IMG/VR virus record: IMGVR_UViG_3300030330_000562
Coordinates: 22,434 to 86,433 of that record
DNA length: 64,000 nucleotides
Direction: 5' to 3' (one strand)
Source of the DNA: a virus
Taxonomy: Duplodnaviria; Caudoviricetes
The notes under the pieces are model-generated. The model did no database searches, had not been told where the DNA came from, and was given only the letters and a program-made list of their open reading frames with translations. The position numbers and the translations under genes are program-made. Shown piece by piece: positions 5,313-63,172 of this stretch. Position 1 is the stretch's first letter. Every line of letters starts with the position of its first letter.

Positions 5313-5341
5313 AAAAGGGGGCTAAACGCCCCCTCTTTTTT
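5313..5341. terminator. Bidirectional rho-independent terminator between the two arms
   Basis: AAAAGGGGGC-TAAAC-GCCCCCTCTTTTTT: GC stem with an A-tract on one side and a T-tract on the other, between convergent genes. Repeated at 62763..62789. Confidence 0.9.
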
Positions 5342-5588: not shown

Positions 5589-5724
5589 ACTCCCAGTCCC
5601 TATGATCTTTTGTATTTTGAGGATAGGGATTAGTTAGGTTTCCTACTAAGAAACCTCTGTAGCCTTGATTAAACGGCTTGGCTACTTTCGCTTTTGTAGT
5701 TGTACTAGTGCGCTTAGATACCAT
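5518..5724 (-). CDS. Small protein with a ribosome modulation factor-like motif
   Basis: GY..F..G...NPY......W..GF pattern resembles phage RMF-like proteins. Conserved in copy B. Confidence 0.5.
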   Translation of the reverse strand: MVSKRTSTTTKAKVAKPFNQGYRGFLVGNLTNPYPQNTKDHRDWEFGFNKAYFKNKEQVLDKESRRRS

Positions 5725-22333: not shown

Positions 22334-22849
22334 TTACGCTGCCGCTGTAACGCCTTTTTTATCCATAATCTTTTGATTGTTTAATTCTTTTTGAACCACT
22401 TGCAATGCTGCAATCATAGCACCAATACGCTCTGGATTGCGTTTTGCTACACCTTGAGCATACTTAACTGGATCAAAATCTACTACTTCTGTTTCTGTTC
22501 TAAATGCACTAGACCATTTAGATCCACGCATTGAAATACCGTCTGCTACCAACTGATTAAGTGTATCAACTGCACTATTTGTAAGTGTAGCATTTTTAGT
22601 TTTGATACGATATTGATTAGTCTTTTTATCAATATTAATATTAACACCTGACCAGATCGATCTGATAGTCAACTCAAAATTATTAGCACCGTCTTTTTTA
22701 GATTTAATCTTATCTAACATCATAGCAATAATCGAAGTATCACCAGTTTTGATAGCATGGTTTACAGCATCAAGAGTGTTTTGACCCATTGCAATTCCGT
22801 TGCCTAAGTTACGTGAAAAGTTACCTACGAATTTTTTAATATCTTGCAT
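22334..22849 (-). CDS. First early gene, hypothetical protein
   Basis: 171 aa, SD AGGAG, first ORF of the minus-strand arm. Confidence 0.75.
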   Translation of the reverse strand: MQDIKKFVGNFSRNLGNGIAMGQNTLDAVNHAIKTGDTSIIAMMLDKIKSKKDGANNFELTIRSIWSGVNINIDKKTNQYRIKTKNATLTNSAVDTLNQLVADGISMRGSKWSSAFRTETEVVDFDPVKYAQGVAKRNPERIGAMIAALQVVQKELNNQKIMDKKGVTAAA

Positions 22850-32817: not shown

Positions 32818-34914
32818 ATGGCAGAAGAAAATTTTGAAGAAATGATTATGGACATGGAACAAACAGTGTCTATAGAAGACGTTGTAGAAGAAGATTATTC
32901 AGATCCACTTACAGGTCATATTGTACAGTTTGTTAAAGATAGGTATAGTAAAGCTGATACAGCTAGACAAATGGATGAAGAACGTTGGATTCAAGCTTAT
33001 AGAAACTATCGTGGATTATATGGACCTGATGTACAATTTACATCTACAGAAAAATCTCGTATCTTTGTAAAAGTAACTAAAACAAAAGTTCTTGCAGCTT
33101 ATGGTCAAATAGCAGAAGTACTATTTGGTGGTAATAGGTTTCCAATCAGTGTTGACCCAACAATTTTACCAGAAAACGTAGAAGATACTGTTAGTTTTGA
33201 AACTAACCCTGAATTAAAGAAAGCAATTGATTCAAATATGGGTGAGTTACTTCCAGGAGAAACTATGCCAGAATTTAAAGAGCGTCTGGGTGCTTTGTCT
33301 GGTACATTAGAGCCTATTATTGATGATGTAAAACCTGGTGCAGGTAAAACTCCAACTGCAGCTCAACTGCATCCTGCTGAAGTTGCAGCTAAGAAAATGG
33401 AAAAGAAGATACATGATCAATTAGAAGAATCTCATGCAAAAAAACATTTACGTGCTGCTGCTTTTGAGTCAGCACTTTTTGGTACAGGGGTTATGAAAGG
33501 CCCATTTGCTATAGATAAAGAATATCCAAATTGGGATGAAGAAGGTAATTACTCTCCTACATTTAAAACAATTCCTCAAACTTCATCTGTGTCTATTTGG
33601 AATTTTTACCCAGATCCAGATGCTGCTACTATGGAAGAGGCAGAGTATGTTGTAGAAAGACACAAGATGTCACGTTCTCAAGTACGTGGTTTAAAAAATC
33701 GTCCATACTTTAGAGAAAATGCAGTAGATAATGCCCTAAAACTTGGTGAAAGTTATCGTAAACAGTGGTGGGAACACATCATGGAAGATAACTCAGAAGA
33801 AGATAGAGCTGATCGTTTTGAAGTTCTAGAGTTTTGGGGTTTTGTAGATAAAGAGATGATAAAAGATCAGGGAGTAGATATCCCTAAAGATTTAGAAGAT
33901 GCAGATCAACTAAGTGTAAATATCTGGATTTGTAATGGACAAGTATTAAGACTTGTAATGAATCCATTTACTCCAGCTTATATACCTTATTTTGTAGCTC
34001 CTTATGAGATGAATCCATATAGTATTTTTGGTATTGGTATTGCCGAAAATATGGACGATACTCAAACACTTATGAATGGCTTTATGCGAATGGCGGTAGA
34101 TAACGCAGCATTGTCTGGTAATCTACTAATTGAGGTAGACGAGACTAATCTCGTCCCAGGGCAAGACCTCTCCGTGTATCCAGGAAAAGTGTTTAGGAGA
34201 CAGGGAGGGGCACCTGGTCAAGCTATCTTTGGAACTAAGTTCCCCAACGTATCTAACGAGAACATGCAGATGTTCGATAAAGCAAGGGTATTAGCTGATG
34301 AATCAACTGGTTTTCCATCTTTCGCACATGGTCAGACAGGCGTTAGTGGAGTGGGTCGTACTGCTTCTGGTATTTCTATGCTTATGTCTGCTGCCAACGG
34401 CAGTATACGCAATGTAGTTAAAAACATAGATGACTATCTACTAGCACCACTAGGTAAAGCCTTTTTTGGTTTTAATATGCAGTTTGACTTTGATAAAGAA
34501 ATTAAAGGTGACTTGGAGATAAAAGCTCGTGGTACAGAAAGTCTTATGGCTAATGAAGTGCGTAGCCAACGCCTTATGCAATTTATGCAAGTGGTATCAA
34601 ACCCTGCACTCGCTCCATTCGCACGTATGGACTATATTGTACGTGAAATTGCTAAGTCAATGGATCTTGATCCAGATAAAGTTGGAAACAATATGGCGGA
34701 AGCTGCGATTCAAGCTGAGATTTTAAAAGAGTTTAGAGAAACTAATCCACCTCCTGCACCACCTCCAGGAGTAAATGCTCCTCAGAACGCACCTGCTGGC
34801 GCACAAGTGCAGGATACTCAAGGTAGTGGGGGTGGTACTATAGGAACTGGAACAGCCCCTCAGCCAGGAGAACAGGGCTTCTCAGGTAATACTGGTCAAC
34901 AACAGATACAATGA
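32818..34914 (+). CDS. Portal protein
   Basis: 698 aa directly after TerL, with GTGV.KGP, IG.AENM.D.Q and RTASG.SML patterns typical of podoviral portals. Confidence 0.88.
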   Translation: MAEENFEEMIMDMEQTVSIEDVVEEDYSDPLTGHIVQFVKDRYSKADTARQMDEERWIQAYRNYRGLYGPDVQFTSTEKSRIFVKVTKTKVLAAYGQIAEVLFGGNRFPISVDPTILPENVEDTVSFETNPELKKAIDSNMGELLPGETMPEFKERLGALSGTLEPIIDDVKPGAGKTPTAAQLHPAEVAAKKMEKKIHDQLEESHAKKHLRAAAFESALFGTGVMKGPFAIDKEYPNWDEEGNYSPTFKTIPQTSSVSIWNFYPDPDAATMEEAEYVVERHKMSRSQVRGLKNRPYFRENAVDNALKLGESYRKQWWEHIMEDNSEEDRADRFEVLEFWGFVDKEMIKDQGVDIPKDLEDADQLSVNIWICNGQVLRLVMNPFTPAYIPYFVAPYEMNPYSIFGIGIAENMDDTQTLMNGFMRMAVDNAALSGNLLIEVDETNLVPGQDLSVYPGKVFRRQGGAPGQAIFGTKFPNVSNENMQMFDKARVLADESTGFPSFAHGQTGVSGVGRTASGISMLMSAANGSIRNVVKNIDDYLLAPLGKAFFGFNMQFDFDKEIKGDLEIKARGTESLMANEVRSQRLMQFMQVVSNPALAPFARMDYIVREIAKSMDLDPDKVGNNMAEAAIQAEILKEFRETNPPPAPPPGVNAPQNAPAGAQVQDTQGSGGGTIGTGTAPQPGEQGFSGNTGQQQIQ

Positions 34915-35117
34915 AACTAGTCGTGAACAATACTTTAAAACCTTTCGTAAATAATCCAGAGTTGTATAATCCATTTCTGGAAGAGATAGTTATTAGAATA
35001 GATAAAGTTCATAAACGTCTTGAGCAGCTTAACGATATAGAAGAAGTATATCGTGCTCAAGGTGAGATACGTATGCTCAGATCAATGTTAAGACTTAGGG
35101 ATGATATTAATGGCTAA
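34911..35117 (+). CDS. Small portal-adjacent protein
   Basis: 68 aa, YRAQGEIR.LR motif. Confidence 0.65.
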   Translation: MKLVVNNTLKPFVNNPELYNPFLEEIVIRIDKVHKRLEQLNDIEEVYRAQGEIRMLRSMLRLRDDING

Positions 35118-38100
35118 TACAGCAGAACAGATGCATGAAATAGAGCATTTTAATCAAAATACAGATTCACCTAAAAACATTCAAGAACAGATGGGAGTAC
35201 TTGGTTATACTCCAGAAACAACAGATAAAAATTCATCTCGTATTCTGCCTCCCAATATTAGCTACCCTGCTCCTTTTCTTTCAAAAGATTCATCTAACAT
35301 TAAAGGTTTAACTTACGGAGAACTTATTGTTGATAATATACTATTTTTAGATAATAATTATGAAAGTAGTATAGAAGGTATTTATAATAAATTTAGTGAA
35401 GATAAAAAAGGTTTTTTAAAAGCACTGGGTCAAAGTATTTATGACTCAGCCAAAAAATTTATGTATGAACCCTCAAAAATACCAGGAACTGATACATATA
35501 TTCCTGCAGAATTATCAAGAGGACAAAAAGTTGGAGAGTTTGTTTTTGATTCTTTAAAAGATATAAAAGATGCAGTTGTAAGACTTTCTTCAGAAGATCT
35601 TGATGCTAGATTACAAAATATGTTTAATGTTAATTCTAAAGATGCAACTAACGAACAAGTATCTCAAGCTAGAGAGTCTGTTATCGTGGATACACTTGCT
35701 GCACTTGAACTTATACCTGCACTTGGGCCTACTGCAAAAGTTACAAAAGAAACAATATCTGGTGCTGTAAAGCTTGCAGATAGAGTTACAGTAAATCCAA
35801 GTGCATTAGGCACTATTGGGGGAAATTTTGCGTTAAGAACTCCTGGAGAAACTGGTAATTTTAAAAGAGCTATAGATTTTTTTAAGAAAAAAGGTGGTAC
35901 TGATCCTAATAATTTTAAAGATATAAATAGAAAAATGTACAATAAATTTGGTTGGTACATTAATCCTTCTGATGGACAATGGCGTTATCAAATATCAGAT
36001 AAGAATTCTAAATTAGACCTTAAAAATTTTAAAGTACAAATTAGAAATTTAGGTCTCAATGAAACTAAAACTTTAAAACTATCTGATATTTTAACACATG
36101 ATCAATTATTTAAAAGATACCCTCATCTAAAAAATATTAATGTTCAATTTGAAAATAGATTTAAAAACCCAATTACTGATGGCTTACCATCTTTAGGATC
36201 TTTTTCTGGGGGTGATAATCTAATAAAAATAAATGTAAATAAAGATAGAGGAGTTGACGTATCTAATCTAGGAAATAGTGCAAGTTTTAAAGCTACTTTA
36301 TTTCATGAAATACAACATGCAATACAAGAGTATGAAGGTTTTATTCCAGGCACAAGTACTATAAATATACCTATTGAAGTAACAAAAAAACATTCAACTA
36401 TGTTAGCTAATAATCTTGATTTTAATAGAAATCAAAGAAAAAAAATAATTGAAGAAATTGAGGGTTCTGCTTTAGAACACAAAATTAATACTGATACTTT
36501 ATTAGCACATTTTTTACAAGATAGGTATCTTAAAACAGGGGTAGTGTTATTTACAAGTGAAGACGAAGTAATAAAAAAGTTTGCTGATGCTGTAGAAAAA
36601 GTAGGTTTACCTCCTAATATATTTGATGTTCCACCAGGATCTAGTAAAGCGTTTTTAGATTTAAGTGATGATTTAAATAGATTAAGAAATAGTTTTTTAG
36701 ATGATGTAAAAACAAAAAAAGCAATAGGGTATATTGAAGATTTACTTTATAGAGGATCAGGTGGAGAGCTAGAAAGCACTGGAGTAGAGGTAGAACTTGA
36801 TAGTGCTCAAAATAAATTACGTTATCCTTTAGATGTAGAACAAGATATAATTAAGGCAAGAAAACTTGAAGATTTTGCAGGTAGTTTAGATGAAACAGCA
36901 CAACAAGCTCTAATTCCAGAAGATCCTGGCTATTATAGAAGACAAACTTATAGAAAAGCTAATCCAGGCGTAGTTGATGTAAAAGTTGATATTGATTTGA
37001 CTAAATATAAATATCATAAACTAGATCAAATTCCACCTGCAAAAGATTTAAATGATCCAGAATATTTAGCTTATCAAAAATTATCAAAAGAAAGTAGTGC
37101 TGTAAAACGTAGAGATGCACGTACTAAATTTCTTTTAGATAATATTATTAAAGATAACTCTCAGTTAAAAAAAGTAAAAAACCTTAAAAATGGAGATACT
37201 TTTTCTTATACACTTCCAAATGGAAAAACTGTAAAAGTAAAATTTGATAAGGTAAAAACACAAAAAATTAAACGTAGTGATTTAAGTGAAACAGATGATA
37301 CACTTATTATTAAAGATACTAGACCTAATAAATATAAAGAGGAAATGAGTGATTTTATCATACCATATGCACGTCTTGAAATTATTGATAGTGATGCACC
37401 AGACTTAGAAATTACAATACCTAATCTTATAAAAAATAGTGATCTAGTTAAAGACGGTAAAAATTTTAACCTATTAGATTTAGGGGATACTAGACCCGAA
37501 GAAGGTGCTTTTAGTAAAATAAAAAGTTTATTTGGATTTGCCGAAGGAGGCGACACAGTGAAACCAGAACCAAAACCAGAAACCAGACCTTTTCCTGATG
37601 TTAAACCACAGGCAAAACCTGACTCGGATGAATACAGAGGTCGTACTTATGATATATACTCTGTAGAAATTGATGGAATAGAAACAAATGTTATTGAGTT
37701 TAAAGACGGTAAAAAAATATCTGCACCTCAAATACGGCAAATGTTTGAAGAATATAAAAGTGCTTCAGAATCAATTCCAGGAAAACAAACTTCACAAGAA
37801 ATATCAAAATTTCTTGAGGATAATAATCCTACGTATGATGAGTTTATCAGACACTTTACTGCTAAAAGAATAAATAAAGGTGGACTGATAGGAGATCAAA
37901 TGGAAATGGCTTTTATGAACGAAGGTGGCCTAACAGATGACGGTATGGATGTAGATCCAGTATCAGGTAATGATATACCTTCAGGTTCTATGGCAGAAGA
38001 GGTACGAGATGATATACCTGCACAGTTGTCCGATGGTGAATATGTAGTTCCTGCTGATGTCGTAAGATACTACGGTGTCAAGTTCTTTGAAGATCTTAGA

Positions 38101-39414
38101 GATCAAGCTAAAATGGGTTTAGCTCAAATGGAGGCCGATGGTCGTATAGGTGGTGAGCCTGTACCTGCAGGTGGTCCAATAAATACTGAAGAGCTATCTC
38201 CAGAAGAGATGCAAGCTATACAAGAAATGATGGGTATGTCTGAGGGTGGTTCTGTAAATGCTTTGAAAACACAACAAGAGCTTCTTGAACAACCAGCTAA
38301 TAAAGCTGTAGGTAATCCACAAATGATGTATGGTGGTGGTCAAGTTAGAGGCTATCAAAACTCAAGTCTTGTTGCACAAGCAGAGTCTAATTTATTAGGT
38401 GGACAATCTCTATCTCAGGTTGAACAACAGATGCTATCTGCAGCAGGAAATAAACCTTATACAGGGCAACCTTTAGGTTTTTCCCTTTTTGGAGGTTCTA
38501 ACACTGGTGTAAAACAAGATCAATCTCAAACTTCTGCTTTTACTCCTATATTTTTATATAATAAAGCTGGTCAAAATAAATATGTAAGTAGTGAAAAAGA
38601 AAAAGCAAAGGCAATAGCTGATGGTTATACTATGACACTAGAGCAGTACAATATTTATAGATCACAATCTGGTGGTTCTGGTGGTAGTGGTGGTAGTAGT
38701 TCTACAGTAACAACAGGTGATGAAGATAAAGAAATAAAATCTTGGGGTCAAGCTGTAAATTGGAATAATGTAGATGATATTAAACAATTTGTAGCTCAGG
38801 CTGAAAGAGGTAATCTATCTGGTTCTGGTAGATTTTTAAGAGGTGCAGGTTTTGCAATTGCTGGATTACCAGGTGCAATGTTAGCAGGAGCATTTCAAAT
38901 TGGTAAGGGTTTAAATAGTATATACGATATGGAAGCTGCAAAAATTATTGCAGAGGCAAAAGGACATACCGAGTTAGCTACTGAAATACAAGAGGGTATA
39001 GATACTTACTTAAAAACTGCAGGTGATATTGCAAACTTTTTATATAAACCTGAAAGTAAAGCTGTTATGAGAAGAGTTGATGGGGTGTTTGCAGGAACTG
39101 GTTATGAAGATGTTAACTCATGGGCAGCAGGTACTAGAAGAACAATAGTTTCAGATTATAAAAAAGGCAAAGAATTTGATAGTAAAAAATCTAAACAAGC
39201 AGGAGATAAAAGAAAAAGAAAAGCTATGAAAGCTTTTAATAAATTACAGAAAAATAAAGATAGTTATATAGCAAGCTCATCTACTCCAGGTGAAACAGCA
39301 GATAATATATCTCAATTAGAAAAATCACTTTCAGCATCAGCACAAAATCCTTCTGGTACAATAAGTTTAAACAAAGGTGGATTGATGCAAAAAAAGAAAA
39401 AGGCAAAGAAATAA
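35101..39414 (+). CDS. Large polyvalent virion protein: LPD23-like domain, zincin HExxH, and a conserved LSDGEYVVPADVV domain
   Basis: GWY.NP.DGQWRYQISD, TLFHEIQHAIQ, DDIPAQLSDGEYVVPADVV.YYG, and six phi-x-x-GG motifs. Confidence 0.75.
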   Translation: MILMANTAEQMHEIEHFNQNTDSPKNIQEQMGVLGYTPETTDKNSSRILPPNISYPAPFLSKDSSNIKGLTYGELIVDNILFLDNNYESSIEGIYNKFSEDKKGFLKALGQSIYDSAKKFMYEPSKIPGTDTYIPAELSRGQKVGEFVFDSLKDIKDAVVRLSSEDLDARLQNMFNVNSKDATNEQVSQARESVIVDTLAALELIPALGPTAKVTKETISGAVKLADRVTVNPSALGTIGGNFALRTPGETGNFKRAIDFFKKKGGTDPNNFKDINRKMYNKFGWYINPSDGQWRYQISDKNSKLDLKNFKVQIRNLGLNETKTLKLSDILTHDQLFKRYPHLKNINVQFENRFKNPITDGLPSLGSFSGGDNLIKINVNKDRGVDVSNLGNSASFKATLFHEIQHAIQEYEGFIPGTSTINIPIEVTKKHSTMLANNLDFNRNQRKKIIEEIEGSALEHKINTDTLLAHFLQDRYLKTGVVLFTSEDEVIKKFADAVEKVGLPPNIFDVPPGSSKAFLDLSDDLNRLRNSFLDDVKTKKAIGYIEDLLYRGSGGELESTGVEVELDSAQNKLRYPLDVEQDIIKARKLEDFAGSLDETAQQALIPEDPGYYRRQTYRKANPGVVDVKVDIDLTKYKYHKLDQIPPAKDLNDPEYLAYQKLSKESSAVKRRDARTKFLLDNIIKDNSQLKKVKNLKNGDTFSYTLPNGKTVKVKFDKVKTQKIKRSDLSETDDTLIIKDTRPNKYKEEMSDFIIPYARLEIIDSDAPDLEITIPNLIKNSDLVKDGKNFNLLDLGDTRPEEGAFSKIKSLFGFAEGGDTVKPEPKPETRPFPDVKPQAKPDSDEYRGRTYDIYSVEIDGIETNVIEFKDGKKISAPQIRQMFEEYKSASESIPGKQTSQEISKFLEDNNPTYDEFIRHFTAKRINKGGLIGDQMEMAFMNEGGLTDDGMDVDPVSGNDIPSGSMAEEVRDDIPAQLSDGEYVVPADVVRYYGVKFFEDLRDQAKMGLAQMEADGRIGGEPVPAGGPINTEELSPEEMQAIQEMMGMSEGGSVNALKTQQELLEQPANKAVGNPQMMYGGGQVRGYQNSSLVAQAESNLLGGQSLSQVEQQMLSAAGNKPYTGQPLGFSLFGGSNTGVKQDQSQTSAFTPIFLYNKAGQNKYVSSEKEKAKAIADGYTMTLEQYNIYRSQSGGSGGSGGSSSTVTTGDEDKEIKSWGQAVNWNNVDDIKQFVAQAERGNLSGSGRFLRGAGFAIAGLPGAMLAGAFQIGKGLNSIYDMEAAKIIAEAKGHTELATEIQEGIDTYLKTAGDIANFLYKPESKAVMRRVDGVFAGTGYEDVNSWAAGTRRTIVSDYKKGKEFDSKKSKQAGDKRKRKAMKAFNKLQKNKDSYIASSSTPGETADNISQLEKSLSASAQNPSGTISLNKGGLMQKKKKAKK

Positions 39415-39417
39415 TAA

Positions 39418-39441
39418 GGCTACTCAGCTTCGGCTGACCCC
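39418..39441 (+). promoter_or_regulatory. cUUCGg hairpin with a CUAC/CC internal loop in the scaffold leader
   Basis: GG-CTAC-TCAGC-TTCG-GCTGA-CC-CC upstream of SD AGGAG. Confidence 0.65.
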
Positions 39442-39461
39442 AACATAAAAAGGAGAAAAAT

Positions 39462-40361
39462 ATGCCTGAATTAGCAGAAGTAGAAACACCAAAAACAGCA
39501 GGGTTTGTTGATAGAGGTTACAACTACGAAAAGAAGCGTAAGCAAATGGAAACGGAAGAAGAGGAGATTCGTAAACTTGAAGCTGAACAACGTGGAGAAA
39601 CAGACGAAGAACAGCAACCAGAAAAAGAAACTTCCAAAAAGAAAGAGACCGATACAGAAGCTAAAGAAGAAACGCTATCTGCTGAAGAAAAATCGTTTAA
39701 AAAGCGTTATGGCGATCTAAGACGCCATATGCAAGAAAAAGAAAAGGAATGGGAAGATAAGTTTAAAGCCTTTGAGAAACGATTAGAAAAAGAATCTATT
39801 GTACCACCTAAGTCTGATGAAGATATAGAAGAGTGGTCTAAAGAATATCCAGACGTAGCAGGTATAGTAGAAACTATTGCTGCTAAAAAAGCTCAAGAGA
39901 TGTTTAATAAAGCTGAAGCTCGTATGCAAGAGTTTGATAAAATTCAAACAGAAGCTGAAAGAACTAAGGCTGAAAGTATCATACGTAAATCACACGAAGA
40001 CTTTGATGATCTACGTGCATCTGATGAATTTCATAACTGGGTTGAAGAACAACCTAAATGGGTACAAGATGCACTGTACGAAAACTCAGATGATCCAGCC
40101 TCTGTAGTTCGTGTTATAGATCTATATAAAGTAGATAAAGGTCTAACTAAGAGTGCAAAGAAAGCAAAAGCTAAAGATGCAGCCTCTACAGTCACAAAAC
40201 GTAGTAAAACACAAGTAGATGTAGAAGATGCAAATGACGTAATTCGTGAGTCAGAAGTTGCTAAAATGTCCGATAAGGAATTTGAAGAAAAGTCTGACGA
40301 TATTAACAAAGCTATCCGTTCGGGTAAATTTGTTTACGATGTATCTGGCAAAGCTAGATAA
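39462..40361 (+). CDS. Capsid scaffolding protein
   Basis: Acidic coiled coil between the portal region and MCP, with KKRYGDLRR and a C-terminal I.KA.R.G motif. Confidence 0.8.
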   Translation: MPELAEVETPKTAGFVDRGYNYEKKRKQMETEEEEIRKLEAEQRGETDEEQQPEKETSKKKETDTEAKEETLSAEEKSFKKRYGDLRRHMQEKEKEWEDKFKAFEKRLEKESIVPPKSDEDIEEWSKEYPDVAGIVETIAAKKAQEMFNKAEARMQEFDKIQTEAERTKAESIIRKSHEDFDDLRASDEFHNWVEEQPKWVQDALYENSDDPASVVRVIDLYKVDKGLTKSAKKAKAKDAASTVTKRSKTQVDVEDANDVIRESEVAKMSDKEFEEKSDDINKAIRSGKFVYDVSGKAR

Positions 40362-40366
40362 AACTG

Positions 40367-40394
40367 TTGACAAATTAATTTTCAGCAGTATAAC
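40367..40394 (+). promoter_or_regulatory. Sigma70-type promoter for the capsid operon
   Basis: TTGACA-N16-TATAAC. Confidence 0.7.
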
Positions 40395-40601
40395 TATGGG
40401 TATGTTGACAAAAGCCTCTTTTTGACTACCTTTTGTCGCACCCAAATTCATAAAAAGTCTAAACTAAGAAGAACTACCTGGACAAGTATAGGCCCAGTGG
40501 TATTTGCTAGCGCAAGTAAGTATTAACTGCACCCTAGAAAACGTACAGCCCCTTTTAGATGTTTAAGCTTAATTCAAGCCAAATATCAGGAGGATTTTAT
40601 C
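40395..40601 (+). ncRNA. Candidate structured 5' leader RNA of the major capsid gene
   Basis: About 205 nt non-coding. Hairpin at 40398..40443 (GACAAAAG/CTTTTGTC) and a long rod at 40478..40548 (CTG/CAG, TAGG/CCTA, CAGT/ACTG, TATTTGC/GCAAGTA). Confidence 0.55.
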
Positions 40602-41675
40602 ATGGCTTTTACAACCGCAGGAGGATACGGTAACTTACCTAACGGTAATTTTTCCAGTGTCATATACTCCAAAAAAGTACAGCTTGCATTTCGCAAGAGT
40701 ACAGTAGTCGGTGATATCACTAATTCAGATTATTTTGGGGAGATTGCTGCCCAAGGTGATACAGTGAAAATCATCAAAGAACCTGAAATCTCAGTAAGCG
40801 CATACGCTCGTGGGACTCAGGTAAATGCACAAGATCTAGACGATGAGGATTTCTCTCTAGTCGTTGACAAAGCAAACTACTATGCTTTTAAAATTGACGA
40901 CATTGAAGAAGCTCACTCACACGTCAACTTCATGGATCTTGCTACCAACCGTGCAGCATATCGTTTAGCTGATCAGCATGACCAAGAAGTACTTGGTTAT
41001 CTATCAGGTTTTAAACAGTCTGCATTACATACCGATGCTGATACAGTCAATGACCAAGTAAATGGTACAAAAGCTGTAGCAAGCGCAGGTTCAGACGAAC
41101 TGCTTTCTTCAATGAAACTGAAGAAAGGTGACTTCGGTAACATCACAACAACTTCTGCAGGAGATCACTCAATTCCTGTAGCAGCACGTCTACCAGGTGC
41201 AACTGCGTTGCCAACAGCAACTGTTTCCCCTGCGATGATTATAAATCGTATGAAACGTTTGTTGGACCAACAACAAGTTGATTCACAAGGCAGATGGCTA
41301 GTTGTAGATCCAGTATTTATGGAAATCTTAGCAGATGAGGATTCTCGATTCTTAAATGCTGATTACGGTGAATCAGGTGCTCTACGCAACGGCCTAGTGC
41401 TAAACAACATGCATGGTTTTAGAATGTATGTTTCTTCAAACCTTCCTCACGTAGGTACAGGTTCAGGAACTTCAGGTTCTGCAAACCAGAATGCTAACTT
41501 TGGTGTGATTGTTGCAGGTCATGATTCTGCTGTTGCAACTGCAGAGCAGATCAGTAAGACTGAAACATATCGTGACCCTGACTCATTTGCAGACATTGTT
41601 CGTGGTATGCACCTATACGGCAGAAAGATTCTTCGTCCAGAAGCAATCGCAACTGCTAAATATAACGCAGCGTAA
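40602..41675 (+). CDS. Major capsid protein
   Basis: 357 aa after the scaffold gene, with GNF..VIYSKKV, GDTVKIIKEP and D.VRG.HLYG.KILRPE motifs of HK97-fold podoviral capsids. Confidence 0.92.
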   Translation: MAFTTAGGYGNLPNGNFSSVIYSKKVQLAFRKSTVVGDITNSDYFGEIAAQGDTVKIIKEPEISVSAYARGTQVNAQDLDDEDFSLVVDKANYYAFKIDDIEEAHSHVNFMDLATNRAAYRLADQHDQEVLGYLSGFKQSALHTDADTVNDQVNGTKAVASAGSDELLSSMKLKKGDFGNITTTSAGDHSIPVAARLPGATALPTATVSPAMIINRMKRLLDQQQVDSQGRWLVVDPVFMEILADEDSRFLNADYGESGALRNGLVLNNMHGFRMYVSSNLPHVGTGSGTSGSANQNANFGVIVAGHDSAVATAEQISKTETYRDPDSFADIVRGMHLYGRKILRPEAIATAKYNAA

Positions 41676-63036: not shown

Positions 63037-63172
63037 ACTCCCAGTCCCTATGATCCTTAGTGTTTGGAACGTAAGGATTAGTTAGGTTTCCTACTAGGAA
63101 ACCTCTGTAGCCTTGGTTAAACGGCTTGGCTACTTTCGTTTTTGTAGTTGTACTAGTGCGCTTAGATACCAT
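62966..63172 (-). CDS. RMF-like small protein (copy B)
   Basis: Near-identical to 5518..5724. Confidence 0.5.
   Translation of the reverse strand: MVSKRTSTTTKTKVAKPFNQGYRGFLVGNLTNPYVPNTKDHRDWEFGFNKAYFKNKEQVLDKESRRRS

Follow-up and report, generated by a model that had tools for sequence, protein, structure and literature searches.

Within the stretch of DNA analysed here, a window of 64,000 nucleotides (nt) covering positions 22,434 to 86,433 of the IMG/VR virus record IMGVR_UViG_3300030330_000562, the mRNA leaders of two neighboring head genes, a scaffold-like gene and the major capsid protein gene, carry conserved structures that are built around the same small asymmetric internal loop. 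The two leaders are best explained as representatives of a single, so far uncatalogued family of cis-acting structures in the mRNAs of HMO-2011-type podoviruses, and it is almost certain that the element is a real RNA element under selection. The loop has one strand of the form 5'-R-CC-Y-3' and a second of the form 5'-R-(N)NAC-Y-3', ranges in size from 2x3 to 2x5 among its copies, and is flanked by two helices whose sequences vary freely. In every scaffold leader the (N)NAC strand is CUAC. The phage itself is an HMO-2011-type marine phage, the capsid protein being 81% identical to those of the Roseobacter phages CRP-13 and CRP-9 and 72% identical to that of Puniceispirillum phage HMO-2011, and the DNA similarity of the window agrees with this kinship. 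The hosts of HMO-2011-type podoviruses are Alphaproteobacteria. The features of the scaffold side, together with the two genes, are the following:

39462-40361, + strand: scaffold-like gene (phrog_13678)
40602-41675, + strand: major capsid protein gene, P22-coat-like (phrog_267)
39418-39441, + strand: scaffold-leader hairpin in its single form, GG-CUAC-UCAGC-UUCG-GCUGA-CC-CC, from sequence and fold; its parts are GG 39418-39419, loop strand CUAC 39420-39423, UCAGC 39424-39428, UUCG 39429-39432, GCUGA 39433-39437, loop strand CC 39438-39439 and CC 39440-39441
39450-39464, + strand: scaffold Shine-Dalgarno sequence AAGGAG (39450-39455) with the start codon ATG (39462)

A preliminary description of the window had proposed three to four copies of such a loop, closed by unrelated stems, in the leaders of these two co-assembling proteins. 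All four loops are present in the sequence at the positions claimed for them, and each of the claimed helices was reproduced in minimum-free-energy folds in which the loops were left open. Folding energy by itself would be weak evidence for the elements, as the z-scores are -0.7 for the scaffold hairpin, -0.3 for the rod of the capsid leader and -3.3 to -3.8 for capsid-leader hairpin 1. Strict matches to the motif are not enriched on the + strand of the genome overall (7 vs. 4.3 in shuffles); inside the 287 nt of both leaders there are two, where 0.02 are expected (P about 2e-4). The genome-wide count and the unremarkable z-scores of two of the three structures would fit a chance similarity of short pyrimidine-rich loops, but this explanation is refuted by conservation and covariation over several hundred contigs and four clades and by the lineage-specific placement of the element, so that its probability is negligible.

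For the comparison, 320 IMG/VR loci were fetched with four capsid queries and complemented with GenBank relatives. At the level of sequence the comparative data are the decisive support for the element: throughout several hundred related contigs the loop bases are kept and the stems co-vary, which bears out both the expected conservation in homologs and the claim that one loop is closed by unrelated stems in the two leaders. Overall, 85-94% of stem cells are paired compared to 17-46% in slid controls, with CC and (N)NAC fixed. Across all clades, 136 distinct scaffold leaders were found, 56 of which have a single and 80 a double ("twin") form, and the six loop bases are invariant in more than 130 of them. 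Their general layout is outer stem, CUAC, helix, CC and outer stem, the window carrying the single loop. The consensus of the window clade is AUAAGG-CUAC-stem-CC-CC-AACAUAA(A)GGAG, with compensatory stems such as UCAGC/GCUGA, CCAGC/GCUGG, CCAGGAA/UUCCUGG and CUAGCA/UGCUAG. The double form reads outer stem-CUAC-helix-CC-inner hairpin-CUAC-helix'-CC-outer stem' and thus holds two nested loops in opposite order. Since each strand of its middle helix reads 5'-CUAC-N5-8-CC-3', the arrangement is a pseudo-twofold "twin loop". Among 31 sequences of the double form, 94.3% of cells are paired, compared to 17-41% with slid partners, and 7 of 13 pairs show compensatory change. RNAalifold found the same three helices unaided, again with open loops. 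Moreover, the middle helix contains 30 U·G cells and no A·C cell, and therefore the structure belongs to the sense RNA.

The scaffold element lies directly against the ribosome-binding site. The core of the Shine-Dalgarno sequence starts at a median distance of 1 nt past the outer stem in twin leaders and of 5 nt in single ones, and the last CC loop is separated from the scaffold ATG by 12-23 nt in 78 of 79 distinct leaders, the exception having 40 nt. A promoter directly upstream is absent in most clades. The element is intercistronic and begins 3 nt past the stop codon of the upstream gene, which encodes a 1437-aa protein, and such a position would suit a processing or decay signal for a host ribonuclease that cuts the polycistronic late transcript before the scaffold and capsid genes. 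The RNase III sites of T7 late genes are hairpins with an asymmetric internal loop as well. However, the stems found here are far below the roughly 20 bp that RNase III needs: the window hairpin has 2 + 5 bp, and the three short helices of the twin forms add up to about 11-16 bp, compared to about two helical turns in sites of the T7 R1.1 type. As the capsid leader additionally has its own promoter, and as a tight and conserved Shine-Dalgarno spacing would be unnecessary for processing, we regard ribonuclease signals as decidedly improbable. The features of an intrinsic terminator are absent too, as a U run follows neither the scaffold nor the capsid element and the terminator scan lists neither of them.

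The second leader lies in the spacer between the scaffold and the capsid gene, which is 212-321 nt long in all window-clade loci. Its 5' part consists of two features:

40367-40394, + strand: sigma-70-type promoter consensus TTGACA-N16-TATAAC, ahead of the capsid leader
40398-40443, + strand: capsid-leader hairpin 1 (from folds; z -3.3 to -3.8), with GACAAAAG 40407-40414, loop strand CC 40415-40416, UC 40417-40418, GA 40424-40425, loop strand CUAC 40426-40429 and CUUUUGUC 40430-40437

The promoter consensus is matched twice in the window, where 0.07 matches are expected, and an alignment of 59 intergenic regions shows TTGACA and TATAACTA without variation, at a spacer of N16/17. The sole other exact TTGACA-N17-TATAAC of the window lies at 8883-8855 on the - strand, upstream of the minus-strand gene block. 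An inverted repeat, CUGUUGA/UCAGCAG at 40364-40388, spans the -35 box and the spacer of the capsid promoter. Part of the window clade shows covariation in this repeat (CUAUUGA/UCAAUAG, CCAU/AUGG); it reaches at least 6 bp in only 29 of 65 leaders, is missing in the HMO clade and is overall no better than in shuffled spacers. In hairpin 1, the outer stem is formed by 40407-40414 and 40430-40437 and the inner stem by UC/GA. This fold fits 64 of 77 window-clade leaders, with outer and inner stems unrelated between relatives, and among 42 distinct cores the CC strand is present in all 42, opposite CUAC in 34, CCAC in six and CAAC in two. A leader peptide, for which a 9-codon open reading frame at 40396 was considered, was rejected since the frame is not conserved.

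With its location directly downstream of a conserved promoter, the structured capsid leader of about 200 nt, which precedes a long co-directional gene block ending at a strong terminator (5317-5341), could also be taken for a processive antitermination RNA of the put or EAR type, modifying the host RNA polymerase past the promoter for read-through of the 20-kb virion operon. Only the capsid leader is promoter-proximal in this way; the same loop is found at the scaffold ribosome-binding site, mostly without a promoter directly upstream. Furthermore, the placement against the Shine-Dalgarno sequence suggests a role in translation, and conserved intrinsic terminators inside the gene block were not seen. 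Antitermination is therefore highly improbable.

The 3' part of the capsid leader forms a larger structure, here called domain 2:

40467-40557, + strand: capsid-leader domain 2, about 90 nt (from the covariance model R2 at 74 bits, pair counts and RNAalifold); its parts in the window are outer helix P2o AAGA/CCUU, loop strand A-CUAC 40473-40477, P2 CUG/CAG, an internal loop, P3 UAGG/CCUA, the loop CC 40493-40494 / CAC 40530-40532, P4 CAGU/ACUG, hairpin P5 and loop strand CC 40549-40550
Rod within domain 2: UAGG 40489-40492, CC 40493-40494 and CAGU 40495-40498 on one strand, ACUG 40526-40529, CAC 40530-40532 and CCUA 40533-40536 on the other, flanked by CUAC 40474-40477 and CCCC 40549-40552
40551-40593, + strand: predicted alternative helix (from the fold) between CCUUUU 40551-40556 and the capsid Shine-Dalgarno sequence AGGAGG 40588-40593

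Domain 2 is common to the window, HMO and CRP-3 clades in the order P2o, (A)NNAC, P2, variable internal loop, P3, CC/CAC, P4, P5 and the CC closing P2, so that two loops flank an interrupted helix. Among 63 sequences from the three clades, 85.4% of cells are paired compared to 34-46% with slid partners; compensatory change is seen at 20 of 23 pairs. Pairing is 100% in P2 (CUG/CAG, CUA/UAG, CAG/CUG) and 95% in P3; the internal loop between them is not conserved between clades. P2o is 94% paired within the window clade and differs in register between clades. The helices P2-P5 were recovered independently by RNAalifold, with open loops. The principle of the scaffold twin form recurs in domain 2, one strand reading (N)NAC-helix-CC and the other CAC-helix-CC. 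The idea that one identical loop recurs in all copies had to be refined at this point: CC is fixed everywhere, but across clades the outer loop of domain 2 is only NNAC/CC (CUAC, UUAC, CCAC, CAAC, ACAC, AUAC), with the 5-nt version ACUAC in the window clade. Two further observations concern this region. A long-range pairing of AAGUCUAAAC (40455-40464) with GUUUAAGCUU (40561-40570) is possible in the window; alignment of the 3' region is poor, and in several relatives GUUUA has a local pairing partner instead. Of 63 aligned leaders, 42 have NGGCCN as apical hexaloop of P5 (40509-40514) and six, the window (AGCGCA) among them, have NGCGCN. As the central four bases of the hexaloop are self-complementary in both versions, it would allow loop-loop kissing of two leader molecules.

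Just 3' of the outer CC loop, window-clade leaders carry an anti-Shine-Dalgarno strand, CC-UCUU (CC-CCUUUU in the window). The core of the capsid Shine-Dalgarno sequence has a predicted paired probability of 0.86 there, of which 0.73 falls to this strand. Since the strand takes part in both helices, closing of the domain and masking of the Shine-Dalgarno sequence are mutually exclusive, and a switch is conceivable in the window clade. Translational ON switches are built in the same way, with an anti-Shine-Dalgarno sequence as 3' strand of the closing helix, and conserved nucleotides in loops and junctions between variable helices are likewise a feature of riboswitches. The loops with their closing G-C pairs might thus form a pocket for a small molecule or ion whose binding stabilizes the helix closing the capsid domain and exposes the Shine-Dalgarno sequence. 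Yet most aptamers are more complex than the single-form scaffold hairpin, which has only 24 nt and one 2x4 loop; P2 and P3 are separated by an internal loop that varies between clades, and the head-protein gene context points to no metabolite. The expression platform is not conserved either, as the competing helix is predicted with a probability of only 0.02 in the HMO clade, where the Shine-Dalgarno core is paired at 0.26, and of 0.01 in the CRP-3 clade. A riboswitch-like function is thus improbable.

The element is specific for its two sites and for its lineage. Two covariance models were used, R1 for the scaffold twin form and R2 for capsid domain 2. R1 hits the window at 39412-39464 with an E value of 0.003 and finds no other match below E 0.4; the E values are 4.6e-15 in HMO-2011, 2e-4 in CRP-13, 3e-3 in CRP-3 and 0.06 in Rhizobium phage RHph_N3_13. 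The expected scaffold leader is the sole clear match in the window and in four of five relatives; the fifth, Pelagibacter phage HTVC033P, has a single R1 match (E 0.34) at a distance from the scaffold gene and none to R2. R2 scores 74 bits in the window and matches the expected leader once in each of four relatives, with E values of 2e-18 in HMO-2011, which is outside its seed, and of 0.004 in RHph_N3_13; CRP-13 and CRP-3, each matched once, are both in the seed. The scaffold leader of HTVC033P (L087, 972-1039), missed by R1, is a degenerate GAG-CUAC-CCUUA-UCCA-UAAGG-CA-CUC, and its capsid gene follows only 31 nt past the scaffold gene (L087, 1970-2000), without a structured leader. At 21 Rhizobium-phage-like loci, R1 found the expected site in 19 and R2 in seven. 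A weak R2 match of the window on the - strand at 38126-38181 (18 bits, E about 0.003), GACCACCUG...GGCCUCC, is antisense to the 1437-aa gene and probably due to chance. Other loop matches in the window, at 5654/63102, 23331, 25347 and 55028, lie in coding sequence or have long irregular spans, and neither R1 nor R2 detects them; they were rejected as additional copies.

Relative to the capsid ATG, motif matches cluster only at -1300 to -1100 and at -300 to -200, on the coding strand. The exact twin pattern is present in at least 120 IMG/VR contigs, with a fully complementary helix in 103. Wherever the fetched locus of such a contig includes the capsid gene (90 of 90), this gene is of the HMO type, has the same orientation as the pattern and lies 0.8-1.8 kb downstream of it. 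The pattern has 140 matches in 596 Gb of bacterial and archaeal genomes; only three of them have a complementary helix, which is chance level, and one of the three is on a phage-like contig; a cellular counterpart in hosts was rejected accordingly. A cmscan search of Rfam 15 with the window region 38500-41500 (E up to 10) and with eight relatives including twin forms (E up to 5) gave no family match and only sub-threshold snoRNA noise, and full-text literature searches brought up no relevant account of an RNA motif in capsid leaders or in HMO-2011. The suggestion in the preliminary description of an undescribed cis-regulatory RNA family is consistent with the missing Rfam match, the invariant loops and the co-varying stems, and its expectation of a conserved RNA structure common to both leaders held, with strand specificity and a position adjoining the ribosome-binding site.

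Such a combination of invariant unpaired bases between free stems, reuse in two otherwise different leaders and placement against the ribosome-binding site is characteristic of sites that are recognized by a trans-acting factor controlling the initiation of translation. From sequence comparison we tentatively read the element as a factor-binding translational operator, to which we give somewhat less than an even chance. The operator that had been postulated at the outset is thereby supported in part, as a conserved structure at the ribosome-binding site fits a recognition site for a trans-acting factor. The loops would then be bound by a factor that is probably phage-encoded and possibly a dimeric protein, as the pseudo-twofold symmetry of the twin form suggests, and its binding would control the access of the 30S subunit to both ribosome-binding sites. 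The unassembled scaffolding protein would be the obvious candidate. In the window clade, where the strand 3' of the outer CC loop is predicted to pair either with the closing helix of the domain or with the capsid Shine-Dalgarno sequence, binding could switch capsid translation.

Several observations weigh against an operator of this kind. The helix masking the Shine-Dalgarno sequence is restricted to the window clade and, not being predicted in the HMO and CRP-3 clades, cannot be a universal mechanism. Hairpin 1 with its loop is missing as such in the HMO clade, which has a different 5' hairpin. In the window, the GG/CC closure of the scaffold hairpin contributes only about 0.7 kcal/mol. The two loops are spaced by 5-8 bp in scaffold leaders vs. 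about 15 layers in the capsid domain, which is awkward for one rigid dimer. Moreover, a Pfam scan of 20 proteins (the basic-protein block, terminase, portal, the 1437-aa protein, scaffold and post-capsid genes) revealed no RNA-binding domain, by which a phage-encoded ribosomal protein S21 or another known RNA-binding domain was rejected as binder. One further candidate came from the same genome:

29941-30105: open reading frame of 54 aa, DUF1127 family

Homologs of this protein are present in CRP-3 and CRP-13 and were found in none of HMO-2011, RHph_N3_13 and HTVC033P; since HMO-2011 and RHph_N3_13 keep the motif, the DUF1127 protein was rejected as a universal binder. Mimicry of rRNA was rejected as well, as Mesorhizobium 16S and 23S rRNA contain 28 CC/CUAC or CC/CAC loops vs. 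26 in shuffles and no convincing mimic. The sequences GA(U/C)(C/U)ACCU and CCUCUU resemble the 3' tail of 16S rRNA, a resemblance without further support.

The negative search for a binder among the neighboring proteins would suit a module that is made of RNA only, in which a twist or bend like that of a C-loop gives compact leaders that protect two abundant late mRNAs from decay or fix their translation efficiency, with no dedicated regulator. Hairpin 1 stands just past the promoter, where the capsid transcript is predicted to begin (at about 40400), and this is the classical place of a stabilizing hairpin. C-loops, as known from the rRNA helices H38, H50 and H96, the ThrRS operator and viroid loop 26, are asymmetric internal loops that are typically 1x3, are defined by two base triples and have a longer strand that usually starts with C (PMC9516175). 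They can act as protein recognition sites and in translational control and, as here, interrupt a hairpin stem. The leading C is found in the scaffold leaders (CUAC), in hairpin 1 (CUAC, CCAC or CAAC) and in the inner capsid loop (CAC), but the first base of the outer capsid loop NNAC is not conserved; in addition, the short strand has two C here and the long strand 3-5 nt, giving loops of 2x3 to 2x5 instead of about 1x3. A mere stabilizer would need a stem only, yet the loop bases of the scaffold leaders are invariant, and the same loop recurs in two leaders of otherwise unrelated fold. An RNA-only module is therefore rather unlikely.

The reading as a translational operator draws on several known systems for its logic. 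The coat-protein hairpins of MS2 and PP7 and the sites of T4 RegA and gp32 are targets of a phage protein at or next to the start codon or Shine-Dalgarno sequence; they are small hairpins or loops in which the unpaired bases are invariant and the stem sequences free. The element described here shares this design and placement without sequence similarity and differs in its 2x3 to 2x5 internal loop, which is often doubled in a pseudo-twofold manner. In the gene 10 unit of T7, too, the major capsid gene of a podovirus is preceded by a strong promoter of its own, by a hairpin at the 5' end and by a strong GGAGG, whereas the promoter here is of the host sigma-70 type, and the leader of about 200 nt has a conserved multi-helix domain and shares its loop with the scaffold leader. 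The gene for the scaffolding protein of phage P22 is reportedly autoregulated at the post-transcriptional level (Casjens & Adams 1985; Wyckoff & Casjens 1985), and to our knowledge no RNA operator has been defined for it. The coat protein of the window phage is of the P22 type, the scaffold gene is directly upstream of the coat gene, and the element is found at the scaffold ribosome-binding site, where an autogenous operator is expected; its position adjoining the Shine-Dalgarno sequence in 79 distinct leaders is consistent with such an operator. Unlike the case of P22, the element is also present in the capsid leader. The likeness is one of regulatory logic only, and by analogy this logic matches P22-type scaffold autoregulation and the MS2 coat protein and T4 RegA operators, although membership in these classes cannot be claimed. 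In its most specific version, the operator might provide an assembly-sensing feedback: a dimer of free scaffold on the twin CC/CUAC loops at its own ribosome-binding site would stop scaffold synthesis, and on the loops of the capsid leader it would close the domain, free the Shine-Dalgarno sequence and raise capsid synthesis, so that the pool of free scaffold sets the stoichiometry. In this full form the proposal is unlikely.

HMO-2011-type phages are among the most abundant phage groups of the ocean, and relatives infect roseobacters, SAR116 and rhizobia. Phages available in culture with their hosts are CRP-9 and CRP-13 (FZCC0023), HMO-2011 (IMCC1322) and the RHph phages (Rhizobium phaseoli). 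A conserved and easily recognized RNA element at the two most heavily made head-protein genes would be among the very few defined post-transcriptional controls of late genes outside the model coliphages. It offers an entry to the question of how scaffold and coat synthesis are matched, a question that dates back to the description of P22 scaffold autoregulation, in which no operator was defined. With the covariance models R1 and R2, metagenomic scaffold and capsid genes of this lineage can be recognized, and the pseudo-twofold twin loop is a candidate for a new RNA-protein recognition module.

The remaining head genes of the window precede the scaffold-like and the capsid gene in the order terminase, portal and 1437-aa gene:

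Upstream of the portal gene: terminase gene
32818-34914: portal gene
35101-39414: gene of the 1437-aa head or polyvalent protein

The window contains a self-repeat, 5654-5685 being identical to 63102-63133 at an offset of 57,448 bp, and therefore the whole record of 86,433 bases is either a concatemer with a unit of about 57.4 kb or an over-assembled circular genome of that size. The terminator at 5317-5341 is an intrinsic one of textbook type, GGGGGC-UAAAC-GCCCCC followed by UCUUUUUU, and lies directly after the last + strand virion gene at the convergence of two gene blocks.

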